A stretch of 64,000 nt of DNA from a virus: the IMG/VR virus record IMGVR_UViG_3300031088_000737, positions 1 through 64,000 of that record, one strand, 5' to 3'. Positions 3,425 through 50,804 of the stretch are shown here, piece by piece. Position 1 is the stretch's first letter. Every line of letters starts with the position of its first letter. The position numbers and the translations under genes were made by a program. Below the pieces are notes generated by a model. The model saw nothing but the letters and a program-made list of their open reading frames with translations, did not search any database and was not told where the DNA came from.

Positions 3425-5278
3425 ATGGAGAATTCTAAAATGTTAAAAAAATATTTCGAACATCAAAATTTGATTATTGAAGTTAGAAAAAATTATAAAA
3501 TTTATGATATAATAAAAAATGAATATATAGATAAACATAGAAAAGATTTACTTTCGTTTTCAAAGAAACTTAAAAATAAAGTAATATTTAGAAATTGTTC
3601 TCATATTATTCATTATTTAATTAACAACGAAAATACAATAATCTTAAATATATTAAAAAAACATGTGACTTCAGGTGAGATCACCTTTTTTGATATATAC
3701 AATTTTATAAATCAAGATCTTCATTTTAATGTAAATAGCAATAGTTTGGAGAGTGATTTTAAATATAATGGCTTATACTCTATAACAGGAGTTTCTAATG
3801 ATTTGTATTCTCTTGATTATTATTTAGACTCAGGTGGCAATTCAAATATATTTTTAACCAGAAGACTTAAAGATAACAAACAATTTGTTTTGAAATACGT
3901 CAAAAAAAATGCAAAATATATTAAAGATGGTCCAAATAACATATTTGTAAGAGAAGTGGAAACAATAAAAAAAATAAATCATCCTAATATTATAAAAATT
4001 ATAGACCATTCTAATTTAAAAGATAATGAGATGAAATTTTATTTTACTGAATTTTATACAAATAGCTTACATAAATATCTATTCTATAGGAGCATTGATG
4101 AAGACTTTAAAGATTGTAATATCAATTCTAAAATCAATTTTATGATTAAAATGGTTGATGCATTATCATATATACAAAAACAAGGTTTAGCTCACTTTGA
4201 TATCAAAGCAGATAATATATTTTTTAATGACATTAATGAACCTGTTATTGCAGATTTTGGGTGTGTCGTTGATTTAAAAAATGACAAAATATTAAAAGAT
4301 GTTAACACTAAATTAGGAAATCATCCAAATGCATCACCTGAACAACGTAATTTTCCATATACAAGATTTCATAATTTAGAGTTTACTGATATTTATTCAG
4401 CAGGTATAGTGTTTAATCAGTTAGTTTGCGGTCAGTCTTTTGAAGGTATGTTGGACAAAAAAATGTATTCAACTGTTAATGAATATCTTTCATATTTGGC
4501 TTGGATTGCAACAAACATGATGACAAATAAACCAGACAAAAGACCTTCTTTTTCTTTAGTAACTGAAACTTTATCTTTATTCAAAAATATATGGAATGAG
4601 AATGTTGATTTTGTTAGAGATGTAAATTTTGAAACGAGTTTAGAAATTAACCTAAAACATCAAATACTTGTAACAAAACCAGTAATTAATGAACCATTTG
4701 ATAAATATATGACAAAATTTGAACACCCTACTGGTGTTGATCAGGATTTTGCAGATTTTCTCGAGAAAAATGTTACAAAGTCAGATGGAGGATTTGCTGA
4801 GTGGGTCGATGAAGATCTTGTATTAGAATATAAAAAGTTATTTTTAGATGAAGACACAGCGATTGGACAAATAATTGCCACCCCTAAAGGTAATAATTAT
4901 ACAATCAAAAACTCATTTTGTATTAAAAGTTTTGTAGTTAATAAAAATGAGGATGAAAAAGTTTCATTTAGTAAGTTTGGAGATACTATATTTATGTATT
5001 TAAACACTTCAAAATCAAATTTTTTTCATATGTTTAATACAAACGATATATTAAGTTATTATGAAGAAGGCATTGTTGATAATTATTTCTATCATCACGA
5101 AAAAGATTTTAACAAAATATACCATAGCAATAATTTATTTTTTAAAATTATAAACATATCTGGTCATGGTTCTTTGTTATGTTTTGGCGATAAATATAAT
5201 AAAAATTTACTATTTTTTGTATCTGGTAATAAAGTATTCAAACTTACACCACCTTACTTAAATTTATTAACAAAATAA
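3425..5278 (+). CDS. Hanks-type Ser/Thr protein kinase (non-RD) with unknown N- and C-terminal regions
   Basis: Gly loop DSGGNSNIF, VLKY lysine, REVE alphaC, HFDIKADN catalytic loop, IADFG, ASPEQ, TDIYSAG. Confidence 0.9.
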   Translation: MENSKMLKKYFEHQNLIIEVRKNYKIYDIIKNEYIDKHRKDLLSFSKKLKNKVIFRNCSHIIHYLINNENTIILNILKKHVTSGEITFFDIYNFINQDLHFNVNSNSLESDFKYNGLYSITGVSNDLYSLDYYLDSGGNSNIFLTRRLKDNKQFVLKYVKKNAKYIKDGPNNIFVREVETIKKINHPNIIKIIDHSNLKDNEMKFYFTEFYTNSLHKYLFYRSIDEDFKDCNINSKINFMIKMVDALSYIQKQGLAHFDIKADNIFFNDINEPVIADFGCVVDLKNDKILKDVNTKLGNHPNASPEQRNFPYTRFHNLEFTDIYSAGIVFNQLVCGQSFEGMLDKKMYSTVNEYLSYLAWIATNMMTNKPDKRPSFSLVTETLSLFKNIWNENVDFVRDVNFETSLEINLKHQILVTKPVINEPFDKYMTKFEHPTGVDQDFADFLEKNVTKSDGGFAEWVDEDLVLEYKKLFLDEDTAIGQIIATPKGNNYTIKNSFCIKSFVVNKNEDEKVSFSKFGDTIFMYLNTSKSNFFHMFNTNDILSYYEEGIVDNYFYHHEKDFNKIYHSNNLFFKIINISGHGSLLCFGDKYNKNLLFFVSGNKVFKLTPPYLNLLTK

Positions 5279-5300
5279 AAAGGCTCATATGAGCCTTTTT
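5277..5300. terminator. bidirectional intrinsic terminator
   Basis: AAAAA-GGCTC-ATAT-GAGCC-TTTTT between convergent kinase and aspS genes. Confidence 0.8.
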
Positions 5301-5307
5301 ATTGTTT

Positions 5308-6576
5308 TTATGGCGTCAATCTGTCTGGATCTCGTGGGACAAAGCTAACTTCTTTTACTGAACCTAATCCCAACAGTTTTGCAATCACTCGTTCAATCCC
5401 TAATCCAAATCCGCCATGTGGTGGGCAACCATATTTGAAACTGTCCAAATAATGATGTATGGATTCTGGTTGGATTCCTTTTTCTATGGCTTGTTGTTCT
5501 AAGATGTCAATTCTATGTTCACGAATAGCACCAGTCGTTATTTCAATACCTTTGAATATCAAGTCAAAACTCTTGGTTGTTCCTTTTTCAGTTTCTCTCA
5601 TATGATAGAATGGACGCTTACCTATCGGATAGTCTGAAATAAATATCAAGTCTTTACCTAATTTTTCATACAACAATCTTTCACCTTCATCTGGTAGGTC
5701 TTGTCCAACAGAGAGTTTCAACTCATCAGCTAAGATTTCTTTGGCTTCGGCTAAGGTCATATATTGAACAGTAGGCTTCGTCATCAATTCTATTCCATAG
5801 AGTTCCATAACTTTTTCTTTGAAAGGTTCCAACTTTGAAAACGCATAGGTTAAGATCTCTTCTTCAAGCTTCATCACATCTGCTGTTTCAAAGCACCATG
5901 CAAACTCAACATCAAATCCAGTAAACTCTGTCAGGTGTCTGGTTGAGTGTGATTCTTCTGCACGGAAGACTGGTCCGATTTCAAATATTGCTTCTAATCC
6001 ACTGGCAATTGAGCATTGCTTGTAAAACTGCGGGCTTTGGCTTAAATAAGCCTTTTTATCAAAGTATTTCACCTCAAAAACTTGTGAACCACTCTCACTT
6101 GCTTGGGCCATCAGTTTAGGTGTATGAATTTCAGTAAACTCACGTTGTAACAAGTATTCCCTGCAGCCCGCTTCAAAAGCAGAACGCAATTGCAACATGA
6201 GTTGTCGTTTAGGGTGTTTTAAGTCTACCACTCGGTAGTCAAAACGAAGGTCAATGGATGAGTCTTCCATGATTGGACGGGGTAACGCTTTGGAATGGAT
6301 AACAATAGAATCAACTTGCATTTCTACACCAAAGGTTTTACTTTGTTTGGCTTCCACAATCAACCCAGTTGCAGAAAATGTCGAACCTTCTAAAAGCTCT
6401 GATATTTCTTGATGTTGTTCAACTTTCGACTTCTGAACCACCAGTTGTAGTTTACCTGATTTGTCTCCACCGATTAAGAATTGCAGATGTTTCTGGTCAC
6501 GAAGTGCTTCCAGTGTTAAATGCATGGTAATGGTTTGACCAATGTAGCTTGTAATTTCACTTGTTTTAATTTTCAT
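5308..6576 (-). CDS. aspS: archaeal-type aspartyl-tRNA synthetase (AspRS2-like, probably non-discriminating Asp/Asn)
   Basis: OB anticodon domain, EIHTPKL motif 1, YLSQSPQFYKQ, FRAEESHSTRHLTEF motif 2, GCPPHGGFGLGIER motif 3; 422 aa, lacks the bacterial GAD insertion. Confidence 0.95.
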   Translation of the reverse strand: MKIKTSEITSYIGQTITMHLTLEALRDQKHLQFLIGGDKSGKLQLVVQKSKVEQHQEISELLEGSTFSATGLIVEAKQSKTFGVEMQVDSIVIHSKALPRPIMEDSSIDLRFDYRVVDLKHPKRQLMLQLRSAFEAGCREYLLQREFTEIHTPKLMAQASESGSQVFEVKYFDKKAYLSQSPQFYKQCSIASGLEAIFEIGPVFRAEESHSTRHLTEFTGFDVEFAWCFETADVMKLEEEILTYAFSKLEPFKEKVMELYGIELMTKPTVQYMTLAEAKEILADELKLSVGQDLPDEGERLLYEKLGKDLIFISDYPIGKRPFYHMRETEKGTTKSFDLIFKGIEITTGAIREHRIDILEQQAIEKGIQPESIHHYLDSFKYGCPPHGGFGLGIERVIAKLLGLGSVKEVSFVPRDPDRLTP

Positions 6577-6627
6577 GATGAATCTCCGTTAGTTAAGTTA
6601 GGTTTAGCATTGTTAAAATTAGGGCAC

Positions 6628-6655
6628 AAAAAAAGGCACTCTCGTGAGTGCCTTT
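6628..6655 (-). terminator. attenuator terminator in aspS leader
   Basis: minus strand AAAGGCACTC-ACGA-GAGTGCC-TTTTTTT, upstream of the aspS start. Confidence 0.9.
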
Positions 6656-6674
6656 GTTATCTTCGACTGTTTCT

Positions 6675-6746
6675 TTACGCCACAGATAATCCGACACTCA
6701 ATTGTGCAAAATTATCATTATTGTCAGCGATAAAACGAATAGTCAT
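6675..6746 (-). CDS. aspS leader peptide MTIRFIADNNDNFAQLSVGLSVA (Asp/Asn control codons)
   Basis: 23-aa ORF not in the ORF track; SD AGAGGA at 6759-6754; five consecutive Asp/Asn codons; overlaps the antiterminator strand. Confidence 0.85.
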   Translation of the reverse strand: MTIRFIADNNDNFAQLSVGLSVA

Positions 6747-6769
6747 GAAATAATCCTCTGTATTCTTCT

Positions 6770-6799
6770 ATTATAGCTCGTTGTTGGTTTGAAAGTCAA
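6770..6799 (-). promoter_or_regulatory. sigma70-like promoter of the aspS leader
   Basis: TTGACT (6799-6794), 18-nt spacer, TATAAT (6775-6770). Confidence 0.8.
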
Positions 6800-6874
6800 T
6801 AACTTTTTTTAAGGATTGAACAATATTTTTGGTTGTGTTATAATCAACCTACATTAAATGAGAGAGGTATGATT

Positions 6875-7099
6875 ATGAGTGATTGCGACGATTATGGCTA
6901 TTTGAATACGACAAAAATAGAAAAAGCTAAAACATCATCAAGTTCTTCAAGTCATAAGAAAGACGAAAGTAAAAAATCAAAGACTGTAGCGAGATCAATA
7001 CCATCCAGTTCAAAAGAGGAACCAAGCGATAATGTTGTCACACCAAAACCGAAGTCTAATGATGATGACAATGAGCGTATTTTTCGAGGTTTTTATTAA
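6875..7099 (+). CDS. small low-complexity Ser/Lys-rich protein
   Basis: GAGAGG SD supports start 6875 (track gives 6833); probably disordered. Confidence 0.55.
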   Translation: MSDCDDYGYLNTTKIEKAKTSSSSSSHKKDESKKSKTVARSIPSSSKEEPSDNVVTPKPKSNDDDNERIFRGFY

Positions 7100-7110
7100 A
7101 TTTTAGTCAT

Positions 7111-7141
7111 AAAAAATGTGCTCTTAGAAGCACATTTTTTT
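7111..7141. terminator. bidirectional intrinsic terminator
   Basis: AAAAAATGTGCT...AGCACATTTTTTT between convergent genes. Confidence 0.75.
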
Positions 7142-7154
7142 ATACCTTTCTTTT

Positions 7155-8573
7155 TTAATTTCGTTTATCTACAAAACTCAATACAGCTTCTTGTTTGCCA
7201 AAGAAATACTCTTGAACAACGGGTTCTTTAATTTCTCGCAAGAAATGCGTCATCCCAACAAATGATGTTCCTTTTGATTTTTTACCAATGGATACACTAA
7301 CATCACTGGTTTCTAAATCAATCATGTCAACCAAATCACCATGAATGCGATCTTGACCTTTCGTTAATAAAATAGCCAGATCTGAATTACTCAGTTTAAC
7401 AATGTTGTAAGTATCATTGAAATTTTCCAAACTTAGACAGACTTGATTACCATCTGTAAAACCACAGACTTCATCAATCAAACTACTCACTGACATGGAC
7501 GCTGCCAATATCTGACTAGCGAACTCTAAGTTTTCTAATGTAATCTCTGGTTTTTGTGTAAGCTTTGGTGGTTGCTTATGAATATATTCTTTTTTATTGC
7601 GTTCAATCTCTTCTAAACGCTCAATTTCATGTTCATAGTATTCAGTTTCATTCTTGGGTAGCTTCTCGTTAAAAGATCCCATTCTACTCGCGTAATAGGT
7701 TGAAGTTACTAACAGCACTTTAAACATGTTCGTAAATGACAAGTGATGTAATGTTTGATACTGTTCAAACACAACTGGCAATAACACACGAAATTCTTTT
7801 AGTGTATCTTTACTGAGTGCTTGTCTACTGTTGTCTTTATACAATTCATCCCATTTTGCTTGATCTTGCATGGCATGCCAATATTCTCTTTTTCCACCGA
7901 CTTCTAACATGATTCTGTTAAAGTTTTCAAATGTAATAGTGTTATATTTGAATTTCATCGAAATATCAAGCTCAACGTGTGCCGCTTTGAAAATAGCCTC
8001 ATTTTCAATGACAACATATTCTGGCTTGGCTTCTTTTAGCGATTTTTGATGATTATGCACTTGATCCAATACGGCTTGTTGAATCTGTTCATATTTAGAA
8101 ATCAATGGAATAAGAGTATTGTCTTTTTCAGCTACTTTTTTCAAAAACAAGACACCTTCAACAAATGATGTTGCAGCTTCAATTTCAGATTTAACCAATT
8201 TTTTATTGATCTTTTTAGGTTTAATTTGACTCATTTCTTCAAAATATTCTTCCATTGTGCCAAAAAGACTAACAAATACATCAGTCGTTGTTTTAAAATC
8301 AACATGTTGACCGAAACTTATTTTCAAATCACCCAAAGATTCAAGCATGTGATCAATCGCACAATAAATACCTAGTCGAGAATATTCATATTCGATATTT
8401 GACATTTCTTTAAATGATTTAATAGCGGCATTGTAGGTTTTTGTTTTATCTTTCTCATAATACACAAAGCCTAAGTCTTGAATAGATTTTGGTGTTTTCT
8501 TATTGACAGGTTGGGCCATTTTGATAACAGTGCAACCGTTGTTGCCAAAGAGCTGGTTAAAGATATCTTTCAT
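7155..8573 (-). CDS. hypothetical protein
   Basis: long ORF; AGGGG SD favours start 8573 (MKDIF) over 8600. Confidence 0.75.
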   Translation of the reverse strand: MKDIFNQLFGNNGCTVIKMAQPVNKKTPKSIQDLGFVYYEKDKTKTYNAAIKSFKEMSNIEYEYSRLGIYCAIDHMLESLGDLKISFGQHVDFKTTTDVFVSLFGTMEEYFEEMSQIKPKKINKKLVKSEIEAATSFVEGVLFLKKVAEKDNTLIPLISKYEQIQQAVLDQVHNHQKSLKEAKPEYVVIENEAIFKAAHVELDISMKFKYNTITFENFNRIMLEVGGKREYWHAMQDQAKWDELYKDNSRQALSKDTLKEFRVLLPVVFEQYQTLHHLSFTNMFKVLLVTSTYYASRMGSFNEKLPKNETEYYEHEIERLEEIERNKKEYIHKQPPKLTQKPEITLENLEFASQILAASMSVSSLIDEVCGFTDGNQVCLSLENFNDTYNIVKLSNSDLAILLTKGQDRIHGDLVDMIDLETSDVSVSIGKKSKGTSFVGMTHFLREIKEPVVQEYFFGKQEAVLSFVDKRN

Positions 8574-8660
8574 TAAAAGTCCCCTTATTTTAGATTGCAC
8601 AATATTACACTTTTTGGCTTAAAATGTCAAAGAATATTTATTTAATAGGTTGTTTTTTTG

Positions 8661-8689
8661 TTGACACATCTTTTAAAGAATGCTATTAT
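8661..8689 (+). promoter_or_regulatory. sigma70 promoter of rtcB (extended -10)
   Basis: TTGACA-17-TATTAT, with TG at 8681-8682. Confidence 0.85.
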
Positions 8690-8698
8690 ATGTCTATC

Positions 8699-8787
8699 CA
8701 TTCTAATAGCTGGCTGCTGATTGAATGTGATAATTTTATCGGAATATTTCCGAGGTAAGACTTTATCTAAAAAAATCAGAGGCCAGT
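8699..8787 (+). ncRNA. structured cis-regulatory 5' leader of rtcB (multibranch, SD-sequestering)
   Basis: closing stem CTGGC/GCCAG plus CTGATT/AATCAG enclosing three hairpins; SD GAGG (8779-8782) lies in the stem; alternative hairpin 8699-8727. Confidence 0.55.
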
Positions 8788-8790
8788 ATC

Positions 8791-10227
8791 ATGAAAAACA
8801 AACAAATTCCGTTTAAACGTATTCAACAAAAACTACAAAAAAGTGGTTTATTGATTGATCGTGAAAGTCCAAACGTATTAAGTGTTAAATCTACTAATGA
8901 CGTGGGATTAGAATCAAAAATATTAATGCCAGACACATTCCCTATTGAAGAGAAGGCTATTCATCAGCTTATGGATTTTGCAAAAATACAACATCCAGAC
9001 GGTGGACATGTGAAATGTTCTTGTGCCACACCAGATTTCCACACAGGAAGCACTATTCCAGTAGGCAGTGTGGTAGTGACCAGTCATGACATGGTGATTC
9101 CACAAGCTATCGGCACCGACATCAATTGTGGTATGAGATTGCATAAACTTGACTTAACCTATGACAAGTTCATGGCAAATAAAGAACAATGGGTAAAGAA
9201 ACTCAAAGGCGATTTGTTAGAAGGAACAAGAAATATTCCAGTAACACCTTATGCCATGAAAGCATTGTTTGATAATGGTGTGGGTGATTTCTTTGAGACG
9301 ATGAGAAACAGTAAGCAAGAAGGTATATTTCAGAAAATAGATTATCAACAAATTGAAAAAGAAATCTACAAATTACATTCATCGTCTTTTGAGAAAGGCA
9401 ATTCAAGCTTTGCACCAGAAGCTTTGCAAAACATGAGTAGAGATCTTATCAGAGATCCTTCAATGGGAACATTAGGTGGTGGGAATCATTTTTGTGAGTT
9501 GCAAGTAGTGACTGAAATCACGGATAGACAGAAAGCATATGAGTATGGTATCAAAGTGGGTCAACTGGTGGTGATGATTCACACAGGTTCCCGTGATGTA
9601 GGTTTCTATGTAGGCACTCGTTGGGCAGATAAAGCTAAACAGAAATGGCCGACAGGTCATAAACACCCAGACAGTAAGATATTCCCTATCTATGGTGAAG
9701 GTGTTGATGATTACATGGCTGCAATGCATAGTGCTTCCCATTATGCGACATTGAACAGAGCTTTGATTGCAGAACTCGTAAGACAACGCACTATGGAAGT
9801 ATTCGGTAATATAGATTGTTCTCTACTGGTAGATGTGCCACACAACATTGTATTAAAAGAAGCAGTGGGTAATGTTCACAGAAAAGGTGCAACACCCGCT
9901 CATGCAGGACAAGATCTTTTAATTCCGGGTAGTATGGGACATGATAGCTATATGTTAAGTGGACTAGGTAATGAAAGCTGGATTAATTCTGCAAGTCACG
10001 GTGCTGGGAGAAGTATTTCTAGAAATGAGATTTCCTATAAAGCTAAAAAAGACAAAAGCATTCTGGGATTAGATCGTGTTGAATGTATTACATTGAAAGA
10101 AGAACGATTGATTGAAGAAGCACCGGGAGCTTATAAAGAGATTGGCCCAGTGATTCAATCACAAGTGGATGAAAAGACTGTTTCAGTAATTGCTAAATTT
10201 AGTCCTATCTTAACATTTAAAGCATAA
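8791..10227 (+). CDS. rtcB: RtcB RNA 3'-phosphate/5'-OH ligase
   Basis: PDFH, GTDINCG, GTLGGGNHFCE, IHTGSR, HRKGAT, IPGSMG, SASHGAGR, EEAPGAYK. Confidence 0.95.
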   Translation: MKNKQIPFKRIQQKLQKSGLLIDRESPNVLSVKSTNDVGLESKILMPDTFPIEEKAIHQLMDFAKIQHPDGGHVKCSCATPDFHTGSTIPVGSVVVTSHDMVIPQAIGTDINCGMRLHKLDLTYDKFMANKEQWVKKLKGDLLEGTRNIPVTPYAMKALFDNGVGDFFETMRNSKQEGIFQKIDYQQIEKEIYKLHSSSFEKGNSSFAPEALQNMSRDLIRDPSMGTLGGGNHFCELQVVTEITDRQKAYEYGIKVGQLVVMIHTGSRDVGFYVGTRWADKAKQKWPTGHKHPDSKIFPIYGEGVDDYMAAMHSASHYATLNRALIAELVRQRTMEVFGNIDCSLLVDVPHNIVLKEAVGNVHRKGATPAHAGQDLLIPGSMGHDSYMLSGLGNESWINSASHGAGRSISRNEISYKAKKDKSILGLDRVECITLKEERLIEEAPGAYKEIGPVIQSQVDEKTVSVIAKFSPILTFKA

Positions 10228-48947: not shown

Positions 48948-50804
48948 ATGAGTGGAATTATAGGTCAAATATCATTTGATAAGCAAACAGATAAGCATTT
49001 TATAAAAAAAGGGTTACGTCTTATTGGTCATCGTGGTGAAGATGACAGCGGTTATATGATGACAGACTATGTAGGTATTGGTCATAATCTATTGAGCATT
49101 ACTGGCGATAAAACCAGACAACCCGTAAGTAATAAAGAACGTACTATCTTTGCAGCAGTAAATGGTGAGTTTTACGATTATCAAGATATCATTAAAGAAT
49201 TCAACATGAGTGTCGAGACAAATTCAGATTCTGAAATGATTATTCAACTCTACCAGAGAGGTTTGTTGTTCAAGTATTTAGAGAATGGCAAATTGAATGG
49301 TGAATTCTCATTCTTCCTTTATGACAGTATTAAAAACAAAGTCTACCTTGGAAGAGATTCATTTGGTATTAAACCCCTCTATATTTACCGACACAATGAA
49401 AATGTATATGTATCTTCTGAAATTAAAGGCTTTTTGGCTCTACATAGTTTAGCTTTCGATCCAAACTCATTATACAGTGTGTTAACCATGCAATATCACG
49501 ACACCTATAACACCTTATTTGATGAAGTGAAGCAAGTTCAACCCGGCACTGTATTATTGATTGATGTCAATAAGCGAACGTTCTCTGAAATTACTTATTT
49601 CAACATGAATTTTGAAGAAAACACAAATACCTTTGAAGAAAACAAAATCATCTTGCTTTCCACCCTAAGAAACAGTGTCAGAAGACGCATTGAAAATACT
49701 AAGAAAACAGGGATTGCACTCAGTGGTGGTATTGATTCTGCCTCGGTTCTGGCGTTAGCAGCAGAATGTAGACAACATCTCAATGCCTATACCATTAGTT
49801 TTAAAAATGGAGATGACTATGATGAATTGAAAGCAGCAGAAGAAATGGCTAAACGTTACTCTGCTAATTTTACGCCTATCATTGTTGATGAAAACATGTT
49901 GTTGAAAAACTTAGAGCAGTCTTTGTATCATTCCGAAAACGTTTCAATGAACATGCATGTTGCTTCTAAATATTTGTTGTTTAAGAAAATGGCTGATGAT
50001 GGTTGTAAAGTCTCACTAAGTGGTGAAGGGGCTGATGAAATACTCTTAGGATACCCACATTTTAAAATGGACATGGGATATGGACTTAATATTGAAAATA
50101 ACAAGTACATTTCAGGACTTGATAACTTGTCAGAGATTTTAAACACAGCTAAAATTGAAAAAGAATTAGGTTTTGTACCTACGTTCTTAAAAACTAAATA
50201 TGCATTAGGGTTTAAAATGCATACGCATACGTTGCGTAATGATTACTTAGCTCATTATGTAAACCATGATCCAGCCAGTTATATTATCCGTTTGTATGAA
50301 TTATCGAAAAAGAACAAACCCGTCTTTAATTCAAGTATTCTATGGAGTAAAATAGGCATGAGTAACTATGTGCTCAATGCCCTATGTGATAAAGTCGAAA
50401 TGGCTCACACGATTGAAGGCCGAGTGCCTTTCTTAGATACTGAGTTTTATAACTTTGCTCGCACTATTCCACTTGACCAGAAAATTCATATGGGTCAAGA
50501 AAAATATATCCTTAAAGAAGCTATGAAACCGTTCATTACTGATACAATTTACAATCAGGAAAAACAACCTTTCATTTCACCACCTTTGTTTAACTGGCAG
50601 AACAGTAAGTTTGTGTATGAGCACTTAATGGATGTTGTGCATTCCTCTACTATTCTTAATAGTCATTGTTTTGATCAAGCAAAGATACTGAATATGATTG
50701 ATTTGATTAAGGCTGGAAAACTTGAAGCCAGTAGTTATGACCAAGTGATTATGATGATATTTAGTCTTTATTATTTAGATAAAAACTTTTGTAGAAATCC
50801 TTAA
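48948..50804 (+). CDS. asnB: asparagine synthetase B-like amidotransferase, N-terminal Cys replaced by Ser
   Basis: MSGIIG, HRGEDD, NGEFYD, RDSFGIKPLY, LSGGIDS, SGEGADE, EGRVPFLD. Confidence 0.85.
   Translation: MSGIIGQISFDKQTDKHFIKKGLRLIGHRGEDDSGYMMTDYVGIGHNLLSITGDKTRQPVSNKERTIFAAVNGEFYDYQDIIKEFNMSVETNSDSEMIIQLYQRGLLFKYLENGKLNGEFSFFLYDSIKNKVYLGRDSFGIKPLYIYRHNENVYVSSEIKGFLALHSLAFDPNSLYSVLTMQYHDTYNTLFDEVKQVQPGTVLLIDVNKRTFSEITYFNMNFEENTNTFEENKIILLSTLRNSVRRRIENTKKTGIALSGGIDSASVLALAAECRQHLNAYTISFKNGDDYDELKAAEEMAKRYSANFTPIIVDENMLLKNLEQSLYHSENVSMNMHVASKYLLFKKMADDGCKVSLSGEGADEILLGYPHFKMDMGYGLNIENNKYISGLDNLSEILNTAKIEKELGFVPTFLKTKYALGFKMHTHTLRNDYLAHYVNHDPASYIIRLYELSKKNKPVFNSSILWSKIGMSNYVLNALCDKVEMAHTIEGRVPFLDTEFYNFARTIPLDQKIHMGQEKYILKEAMKPFITDTIYNQEKQPFISPPLFNWQNSKFVYEHLMDVVHSSTILNSHCFDQAKILNMIDLIKAGKLEASSYDQVIMMIFSLYYLDKNFCRNP

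Follow-up and report, generated by a model that had tools for sequence, protein, structure and literature searches.

Within a stretch of 64,000 nucleotides (nt) of DNA from a virus collection, i.e., positions 1 to 64,000 of the IMG/VR record IMGVR_UViG_3300031088_000737 (hereafter the window; the whole record comprises 181 kb), the gene of an archaeal-type aspartyl-tRNA synthetase (AspRS), aspS, is preceded by a short leader which is very likely a ribosome-mediated transcription attenuator, meaning that translation of a leader peptide would gate transcription of the synthetase gene. The attenuator probably switches aspS on when charged tRNA-Asn (and tRNA-Asp) becomes short. Four kinds of observation carry this reading, namely the anatomy of the leader, its conservation across homologues, the covariation of its helices and the alternative folds which it adopts in silico. 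The arrangement is more than a product of chance, it is a conserved regulatory element, and the four-segment leader-peptide architecture which had been proposed in a preliminary description of the same DNA is upheld, its conservation among the homologues being accompanied by covariation.

Anatomy of the leader

All leader elements were predicted from sequence and reside on the minus strand, where the promoter, the Shine-Dalgarno sequence, the 23-codon open reading frame (ORF), the terminator, aspS and all segment coordinates of the preliminary description were confirmed. The leader-aspS transcript is predicted to start from a sigma-70-type promoter, TTGACT-18-TATAAT (6770-6799), which agrees with the consensus at 11 of 12 positions and whose score is the joint-best one in a 4-kb scan covering positions 5000-9000. 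The Shine-Dalgarno sequence AGAGGA (6754-6759) lies 7 nt 5' of the ATG of the leader ORF (6675-6746), which consists of 23 codons plus TAA and translates into the peptide MTIRFIADNNDNFAQLSVGLSVA. Codons 8-12 of this ORF, GAC AAT AAT GAT AAT (D N N D N, 6711-6725), were proposed to be the control codons on which the ribosome stalls. They are overlapped by segment 1 (6704-6727), which contains CUGACA and forms the 5' strand of the anti-antiterminator in minimum free energy (MFE) folds. Segment 2 (6684-6699), reading GAGUGUC-GG-AUUAUCU, resides within codons 16-21 of the leader ORF, is composed of GAGTGTC (6699-6693) and TTATCT (6689-6684) on the DNA level, and has either segment 1 or segment 3 as partner in the folds. 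Segment 3 (6646-6662), i.e., AGAUAA-CAAA-GGCACUC, with AGATAA at 6662-6657 and GGCACTC at 6652-6646, serves as the 3' strand of the antiterminator, whereby its last 10 nt (6655-6646) are at the same time the 5' arm of the terminator. The latter (segments 3:4, 6628-6655), identified by a terminator scan, is an intrinsic one and consists of the hairpin AAAGGCACUC-ACGA-GAGUGCCUUU followed by a U7 tract; the hairpin (6655-6632) comprises 10 base pairs, is GC-rich and has a folding energy of -15.4 kcal/mol, and the T7 stretch is found at 6634-6628. The regulated gene aspS (5308-6576), assigned by its match to the family model NF003483, encodes 422 residues and starts 55 nt 3' of the hairpin and 51 nt 3' of the U tract.

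Conservation of the leader across homologues

The homologue set comprised 33 loci of the AspRS "LRDQKH" subfamily, with 60-100% identity, and every locus with enough upstream DNA was used, which yielded 25 distinct leaders. The loci originate from low-GC contigs of uncultured bacteria (several of them out of eukaryote assemblies), from Burkholderia chromosomes and from Burkholderia alba, and the NCBI record of one subfamily protein names Pandoraea communis; the hosts extend from low-GC symbiont-like bacteria through to Burkholderia. In each of the 25 distinct leaders 21-27 codons make up an ORF which contains an Asn run; a GC-rich hairpin and a U tract come next, 45-60 nt 5' of aspS, and three helices with compensatory changes, described below, accompany this ORF upstream of the homologous aspS genes. 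Representative leader peptides are MTIYLIVDNNDNLAFKSVRLSFA, MFTKIFLNDNNNNDAAQSAGRLLSM and MFTQFLINNVDNNNDAHFMCWQVMC, next to MSRFSLNQHNNPMSPLGDRSVFDC from Burkholderia and MHRISRIDLNNNVSPLGDRRLFAG from B. alba. A TTGAC-type promoter is present at the equivalent position in the low-GC homologues, most of which also carry an AGGA/GGA-type Shine-Dalgarno sequence 5-11 nt 5' of the leader ATG. As the gene neighbourhoods are wholly different from lineage to lineage, the promoter-leader-aspS unit, which measures about 1.6 kb, behaves as a cassette.

A control set was composed of 80 loci, taken among the matches listed, which encode more distant archaeal-type AspRS with 41-49% identity. When searched with an nhmmer profile of the leaders, none of these 80 loci was matched and matches were confined to loci of the subfamily; with the same profile no second copy of the leader was detected in the rest of the 181-kb record, including the region upstream of an AsnB-like gene. 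A sequence-independent scan of the 80 control loci for upstream ORFs (uORFs) with an Asn run yielded nine uORFs, of which only two were clear analogues, both from Latescibacterota. In these (L010, positions 2316-2460, and L014) an aspS 45-46% identical to that of the window is preceded by a leader peptide M(Y/H)IHYFQIAQF(I/T)GNNNDDNNPIRRRAGPA, then by a long hairpin and U7, and the profile search gave no match between these leaders and that of the window, so no homology is detectable. Judged from their sequences, the two leaders suggest that an Asn/Asp leader 5' of archaeal-type aspS is either very old or arose convergently. No match to the region was obtained by megablast against phage and plasmid collections, and no relatives were found among viral contigs with the whole protein and an N-terminal alignment as queries.

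A further observation concerns locus L092 (1011-1500), whose leader is nearly identical to that of the window (MTIRFIADNNDNFTQLSVGLSVA), while its AspRS shares just 63% identity over the N-terminal 100 residues and begins with MRTL as in other lineages. This mismatch between leader and gene suggests, as far as the sequences can be read, either recombination between leader and gene or a fast divergence of the N-terminus.

Covariation of the RNA helices

From 20 leaders RNAalifold returned the terminator (3:4) as the sole helix, with compensatory changes in four of its eight consensus pairs; its arms vary between GGCACUC/GAGUGCC, GACACUC/GAGUGUC, GGCACC/GGUGCC, GGCUCUCG/CGAGAGCC and GGCGCUCG/CGAGCGCC. 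For the antiterminator (2:3) the preliminary description had named the pairing of GAGUGUC (6699-6693) with GGCACUC (6652-6646), supported by that of UUAUCU with AGAUAA, and in the window these strands are complementary as described. The equivalent two helices were evaluated in a sub-alignment of 12 sequences of the GUGCUGGCAGG class, whereby the partner strand slid by 1-3 columns served as control: 87.5% of the cells were paired as compared to 27-47% when slid, three pairs had changed on both sides, and the covariation score was reached by none of 500 shuffles. In L083, where the terminator arm reads GACACUC, the U.G pair of the antiterminator becomes U-A.

The main 1:2 pairing in the MFE folds of the window is formed by GAUAAUUU.GCAC with GUGU.GGAUUAUC, hence by the control codons themselves. 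In this helix GAUAAU (window) or AAUAAU/AAUAAC (elsewhere) pairs with a conserved AUUAUC/GGUUAUU located just 3' of segment 2, and segment 2 is held by an inner hairpin of UGCUGCAC with GUGCUGGCA. Among the 12 relatives 84.5% of the cells of this anti-antiterminator were paired versus 30-49% in the slid control, and five pairs had changed on both sides. As the main 1:2 helix, the earlier proposed pairing of CUGACA (6727-6722) with UGUCGG (6696-6691) was rejected, since it is possible but is neither that of the folds nor conserved in the relatives.

Across the leaders two sequence classes were identified which sequester the same terminator arm, either by GUGCU/GAGUGUC with GGCAC or by GCCUUUGG with CCAAAGGC. 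The second class comprises the Burkholderia-type leaders, L112 and L113, and here the pairing takes place at the base of the terminator arm. With regard to the last of these loci (L113, 1-6275), it was observed that the subfamily member P0052 (69 blocks of the contig collection) lies amid many short same-strand ORFs without Pfam match, a layout which looks phage-like; the leader is of class II (MFLFNNDNRDNMLPLGDRRLLIR).

Folding with a stalled ribosome

The RNA of 20 leaders was folded with a ribosome footprint masked, the A site being placed on the last Asn codon, and with the RNA cut before segment 4. In 15 of the 20 masked leaders the 5' arm of the terminator was held by segment 2 (at least 5 arm bases), and 12 of the 20 masked folds were more stable than at least 95% of their dinucleotide shuffles. 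In the unmasked RNA of most low-GC leaders 1:2 was formed and the terminator arm was free. For the window a stall at any of the Asn codons left 6-7 of the 10 arm bases sequestered, with folding energies of -15.6 to -20.1 kcal/mol, on a par with the -15.4 kcal/mol of the terminator.

Control codons and conserved RNA

Asn accounts for 105 of the 599 leader codons (18%), with 3-6 Asn codons per leader, and these are clustered at codons 7-14, where a run is found in nearly every homologue. Asp contributes 41 leader codons, most of which adjoin the Asn run. As Asp is common and yet missing from the run in most Burkholderia-type leaders (four of five), Asn is regarded as the conserved signal. Judged from the leader sequences, Asn is thus the universal control codon and Asp an auxiliary one, which refines the mixed Asp and Asn control assumed in the preliminary description. 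The amino acids of the run are kept by synonymous swaps of AAT/AAC and GAT/GAC, and its reading frame is preserved through indels and synonymous changes.

A different kind of constraint was identified in the 3' half of the ORF. Comparison of L090 (2338-2415) and L093 with the leader ORFs of L100, L094 and L108 revealed that the motif GUGCUGGCAGGUUAU is read as SAGRL in most leaders and as MCWQVM in L090 and L093, i.e., in different frames of the same RNA. This finding indicates that selection acts on the Asn run as codons and on the 3' half of the ORF as RNA; the preservation of the 3' half as RNA and not as peptide argues against a functional micropeptide. Both constraints meet in the run itself. 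GC-rich hosts prefer AAC over AAU, and in five high-GC leaders of the Burkholderia type (L088, L098, L105, L110 and L111) all Asn codons of the run are AAU. In L110 and L111 the resulting AAUAAU is complementary to AUUAUU further downstream, and in L088, where the run is broken by CAA CAC, the downstream partner is GUGUU instead. The AAU-only runs of these high-GC hosts are therefore explained by the control codons being a strand of the 1:2 helix.

The regulated enzyme and its proposed tRNA specificity

The window AspRS scores 427.8 bits against the NCBIfam model NF003483, aspartate--tRNA(Asn) ligase (cut-off 353), whereas models of asparaginyl-tRNA synthetase (AsnRS) reach at most 242 bits. 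Its best solved structure is that of Thermus thermophilus AspRS2 (1N9W, E 5e-85, full length). The AspRS subfamily is a tight one and carries an invariant N-terminal signature, LRDQKH...QSKT, in the anticodon domain. The extra archaeal-type AspRS of Thermus and Deinococcus is a non-discriminating enzyme which feeds GatCAB for Asn synthesis (PMC4206432). By sequence analogy the window AspRS may likewise charge tRNA(Asn) with aspartate, which would initiate the indirect, GatCAB-dependent formation of Asn-tRNA(Asn). Considering Asn as universal signal, the NF003483 annotation and the analogy to Thermus and Deinococcus, the attenuator would constitute a feedback loop on Asn-tRNA(Asn) supply, whereby a non-discriminating character of the window AspRS is suggested by its family name and its regulation.

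The 181-kb record holds neither a tRNA-Asn nor a tRNA-Asp gene. It was further observed that the window encodes an AsnB-like asparagine synthase (48948-50804, plus strand; PF00733, E 2e-61), which starts with MSGIIG and hence is without the N-terminal catalytic Cys of glutamine-hydrolysing AsnB; upstream of this gene no Asn leader is present.

Proposed mechanism and alternative explanations

The suggested mechanism assumes that transcription starts from the promoter at 6799-6770 and that the 23-codon leader is translated. With an ample supply of Asn-tRNA(Asn) and Asp-tRNA(Asp), the translating ribosome would pass codons 8-12 and segment 2, and after its passage or release segment 1, i.e., the control codons and GCAC, would re-pair with segment 2. 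With 1:2 formed, segment 3 would be available for the 3:4 terminator, and transcription would mostly stop at U7. If, in turn, the ribosome came to a halt at the Asn or Asp codons, it would cover segment 1, so that segment 2 (GAGUGUC...UUAUCU) could pair with the emerging segment 3 (AGAUAA...GGCACUC); with 2:3 formed, the terminator would not be built and RNA polymerase would read into aspS. If AspRS charges tRNA(Asn), the device would be a feedback loop on Asn-tRNA(Asn) supply. In this scheme we infer the translation of the leader and the stalling of ribosomes on it, as well as termination and read-through of the transcript and the choice of tRNAs by the enzyme.

Several findings weigh against the attenuator as described, most of them arising from the folds. 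The full-length MFE fold always contains the terminator, thus the switch must be kinetic, and the stability of the whole-leader fold exceeds that of shuffles to just a modest degree (z = -1.65). Placing a ribosome at the stop codon of the window leader is by itself not sufficient to block GAGUGUC/GGCACUC (7 of 10 arm bases paired), and the untranslated nascent RNA of the window also favours the antiterminator, unlike that of the near-identical relatives L085 and L092, for which 1:2 is favoured when untranslated. Masking of the control codons, the check suggested in the preliminary description, gave the anticipated result for the stalled state in 15 of the 20 leaders but not for the unmasked RNA of the window. 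As the antiterminator of the window is favoured whether the RNA is free of ribosomes or carries one at its stop codon, termination would depend on a putative 1:2 refolding. In Burkholderia-type leaders the Shine-Dalgarno sequence is weak or absent, and segment 2 is located about 7 nt past the last Asn codon, so that it would be free only for a stall on the first Asn codons. The core pairs of the antiterminator are invariant within their class, with the consequence that covariation rests on few edge pairs. With regard to the enzyme, two positions are known from mutational work to govern the recognition of tRNA(Asn), namely those equivalent to T. kodakarensis W26/K85, with W/K marking discriminating and H/P non-discriminating enzymes; in the alignment the window AspRS possesses E23 (D in relatives) and T81 there, thus neither W/K nor H/P, and T81 is invariant across the subfamily. 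These residues, which match neither known specificity state, thus speak neither for nor against the non-discriminating enzyme serving both tRNAs which was put forward in the preliminary description.

Among the alternatives, the one that survives best retains the same attenuator and assigns a different purpose to it: a spare or drug-insensitive AspRS would be switched on in response to inhibition of the housekeeping AspRS, e.g., by microcin C-type mimics of aspartyl adenylate, or to a general slowing of translation, and asparagine supply would not be what is tuned. Extra copies of aminoacyl-tRNA synthetase genes are known as inducible backups or resistance genes (thrZ, tyrZ, ileS2), the Burkholderia gene looks like an accessory copy in varied, non-syntenic neighbourhoods, and inhibition of an AspRS which serves both tRNAs would starve Asp and Asn codons, i.e., the mix found in the low-GC leaders. 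However, biosynthetic or immunity genes adjoin the cassette in none of the loci fetched, and the Asn-only runs of the Burkholderia-type leaders point to Asn-tRNA supply and not to a general failure of AspRS, which renders this explanation unlikely.

Far less probable is the idea that ORF and hairpin form an independent unit, i.e., a small gene, a small RNA or a functional micropeptide, with aspS being transcribed separately. Such a unit would be compatible with the ORF having its own promoter, Shine-Dalgarno sequence and terminator and with the terminator being formed in every full-length fold, but the promoter scan found no promoter-like site between the terminator and the aspS ATG, i.e., in the 51 nt past the U tract, from which aspS could be transcribed. 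In addition, the unit always lies 45-60 nt 5' of an aspS of this subfamily, within neighbourhoods that have nothing else in common, and was detected nowhere else in the 181-kb record or the 80 control loci. The C-terminal half of the peptide is unconserved and comes from two different frames, whereas the RNA encoding it is conserved and complements the terminator arm.

Similarly improbable is an RNA switch in which the leader binds a ligand, a tRNA (riboswitch- or T-box-like) or a protein and the ORF is incidental, since the conserved alternative structures of the leader RNA and the reported control of a non-discriminating AspRS and GatCAB by Asn-specific T-boxes in Clostridium acetobutylicum (Saad et al. 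2012, as relayed in PMC4206432) are opposed by the failure of any T-box or riboswitch family to match even at E-values up to 1-10, by the in-frame Asn codon run being the only conserved unpaired feature and by a length of about 135 nt with three short helices, which leaves no room for a T-box.

Returning to the attenuator, its broader interpretation is given a somewhat better than even chance by us: it would represent an undescribed family of Asn-specific ribosome-mediated attenuators, in which a portable promoter-leader-aspS2 cassette, common to Burkholderiaceae and low-GC intracellular-type bacteria, renders the first enzyme of the tRNA-dependent Asn route inducible by stalling on Asn codons, and in which the AspRS (LRDQKH, QSKT) may be specialised for tRNA(Asn).

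Genomic setting

The record is labelled as an IMG/VR provirus of 181 kb, estimated to be 58% complete. An AspRS identical to that of the window is found on contigs of up to 1.86 Mb, and RtcB (window 8791-10227) and aspS share contigs of 58 kb and 1.54 Mb in relatives. None of the ten ORFs adjoining aspS matched a PHROG family of known function, one of them matching phrog_1106, a family of unknown function, and of ten large ORFs elsewhere in the window nine were without Pfam match. The provirus label is thus not supported by anything seen near aspS, and the mobile-element setting assumed in the preliminary description is not endorsed. In L090 icmW adjoins aspS, and the host has the look of an intracellular proteobacterium of low GC content.

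Divergent to the leader, a small gene is located at 6816-7099 of the window (plus strand), with its start at about 6869 and GAGAGAGG just before it; in relatives it is called with a length of 68-74 residues. Its promoter-like site, TTGAAC-17-TATAAT (6816-6844), lies back to back with the leader promoter.

Comparison with known systems and implications

Leader-peptide attenuation is textbook biology, and to our knowledge no attenuator keyed to asparagine has been described, whereas those of aminoacyl-tRNA synthetase genes amount to only a handful. In the literature searched, the coverage of which is incomplete, no Asn or Asp/Asn leader peptide of aspS was found to be described, and no Rfam family matched; the preliminary description likewise knew of no Asp/Asn attenuator for a synthetase gene. 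At permissive E-values, searches of the window and six homologous loci against Rfam returned only sub-threshold matches to Phe_leader and chance matches to small RNAs; Phe_leader (RF01859) was the best match, with 24.9 bits for the window and 28 bits for L090 as compared to a gathering threshold of 55, while the T-box (RF00230) and other Rfam leader families gave no match at E-values up to 10 or 1.

Among Rfam leader-peptide families, that of the E. coli pheST leader (pheM) is hence alone in matching even weakly, and the window leader, scoring far below threshold, is not a member of it. Both represent an attenuator 5' of an aminoacyl-tRNA synthetase gene with a short ORF containing cognate codons, alternative hairpins and an intrinsic terminator; they differ in that Phe codons are used there and Asn/Asp codons here, in the target, which is an archaeal-type AspRS here, and in that no sequence homology is detectable. 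With the enterobacterial leaders trpL, hisL, thrL, leuL and ilvL the logic of 1:2, 2:3 and 3:4 pairing, the position of control codons in or beside segment 1 and the U-tract terminator are shared. Unlike these, which control biosynthetic operons, the leader described here controls aspS, its ORF runs through segment 2 and its control codons form the 5' strand of the 1:2 helix. We know of no classical leader keyed to asparagine. The architecture is therefore a known one, but its amino-acid specificity (Asn) and its target (aspS) are new.

Regarding the enzyme, the window AspRS is of the same short archaeal type as T. thermophilus AspRS2 (1N9W/3KFU) and that of Deinococcus radiodurans, but differs from AspRS2 of T. 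thermophilus by possessing E23/T81 instead of H/P at the two specificity positions; for the AspRS2 genes of T. thermophilus and D. radiodurans we are aware of no report of leader-peptide control. The Latescibacterota loci L010 and L014 share an Asn/Asp-rich mini-ORF and a terminator before an archaeal-type aspS with the window and differ from it by a non-homologous leader. The closest functional analogue is the T-box with Asn specifier of C. acetobutylicum, which, according to the account of Saad et al. (2012) given in PMC4206432, couples the tRNA-dependent Asn route to the charging of tRNA(Asn) via transcription antitermination. A T-box senses uncharged tRNA directly and without a ribosome, whereas here sensing is proposed to proceed via translation of Asn codons, and T-box features are absent.

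If the proposed mechanism holds true, bacteria without T-boxes would couple the indirect pathway (AspRS, then GatCAB) to the supply of Asn-tRNA(Asn) by ribosome sensing, and the attenuator would be equivalent in function to the Asn T-box of Clostridium. The regulation itself would then hint independently at tRNA(Asn) being a substrate of this uncharacterised AspRS subfamily. The leader could be entered into Rfam as a new family and help to annotate aspS genes better. Occurring in very different hosts, the cassette of about 1.6 kb would lend itself well to studies of the spread of attenuators together with genes and of their adaptation, given that two sequence solutions sequester one terminator arm and that AAU codons double as an RNA strand.

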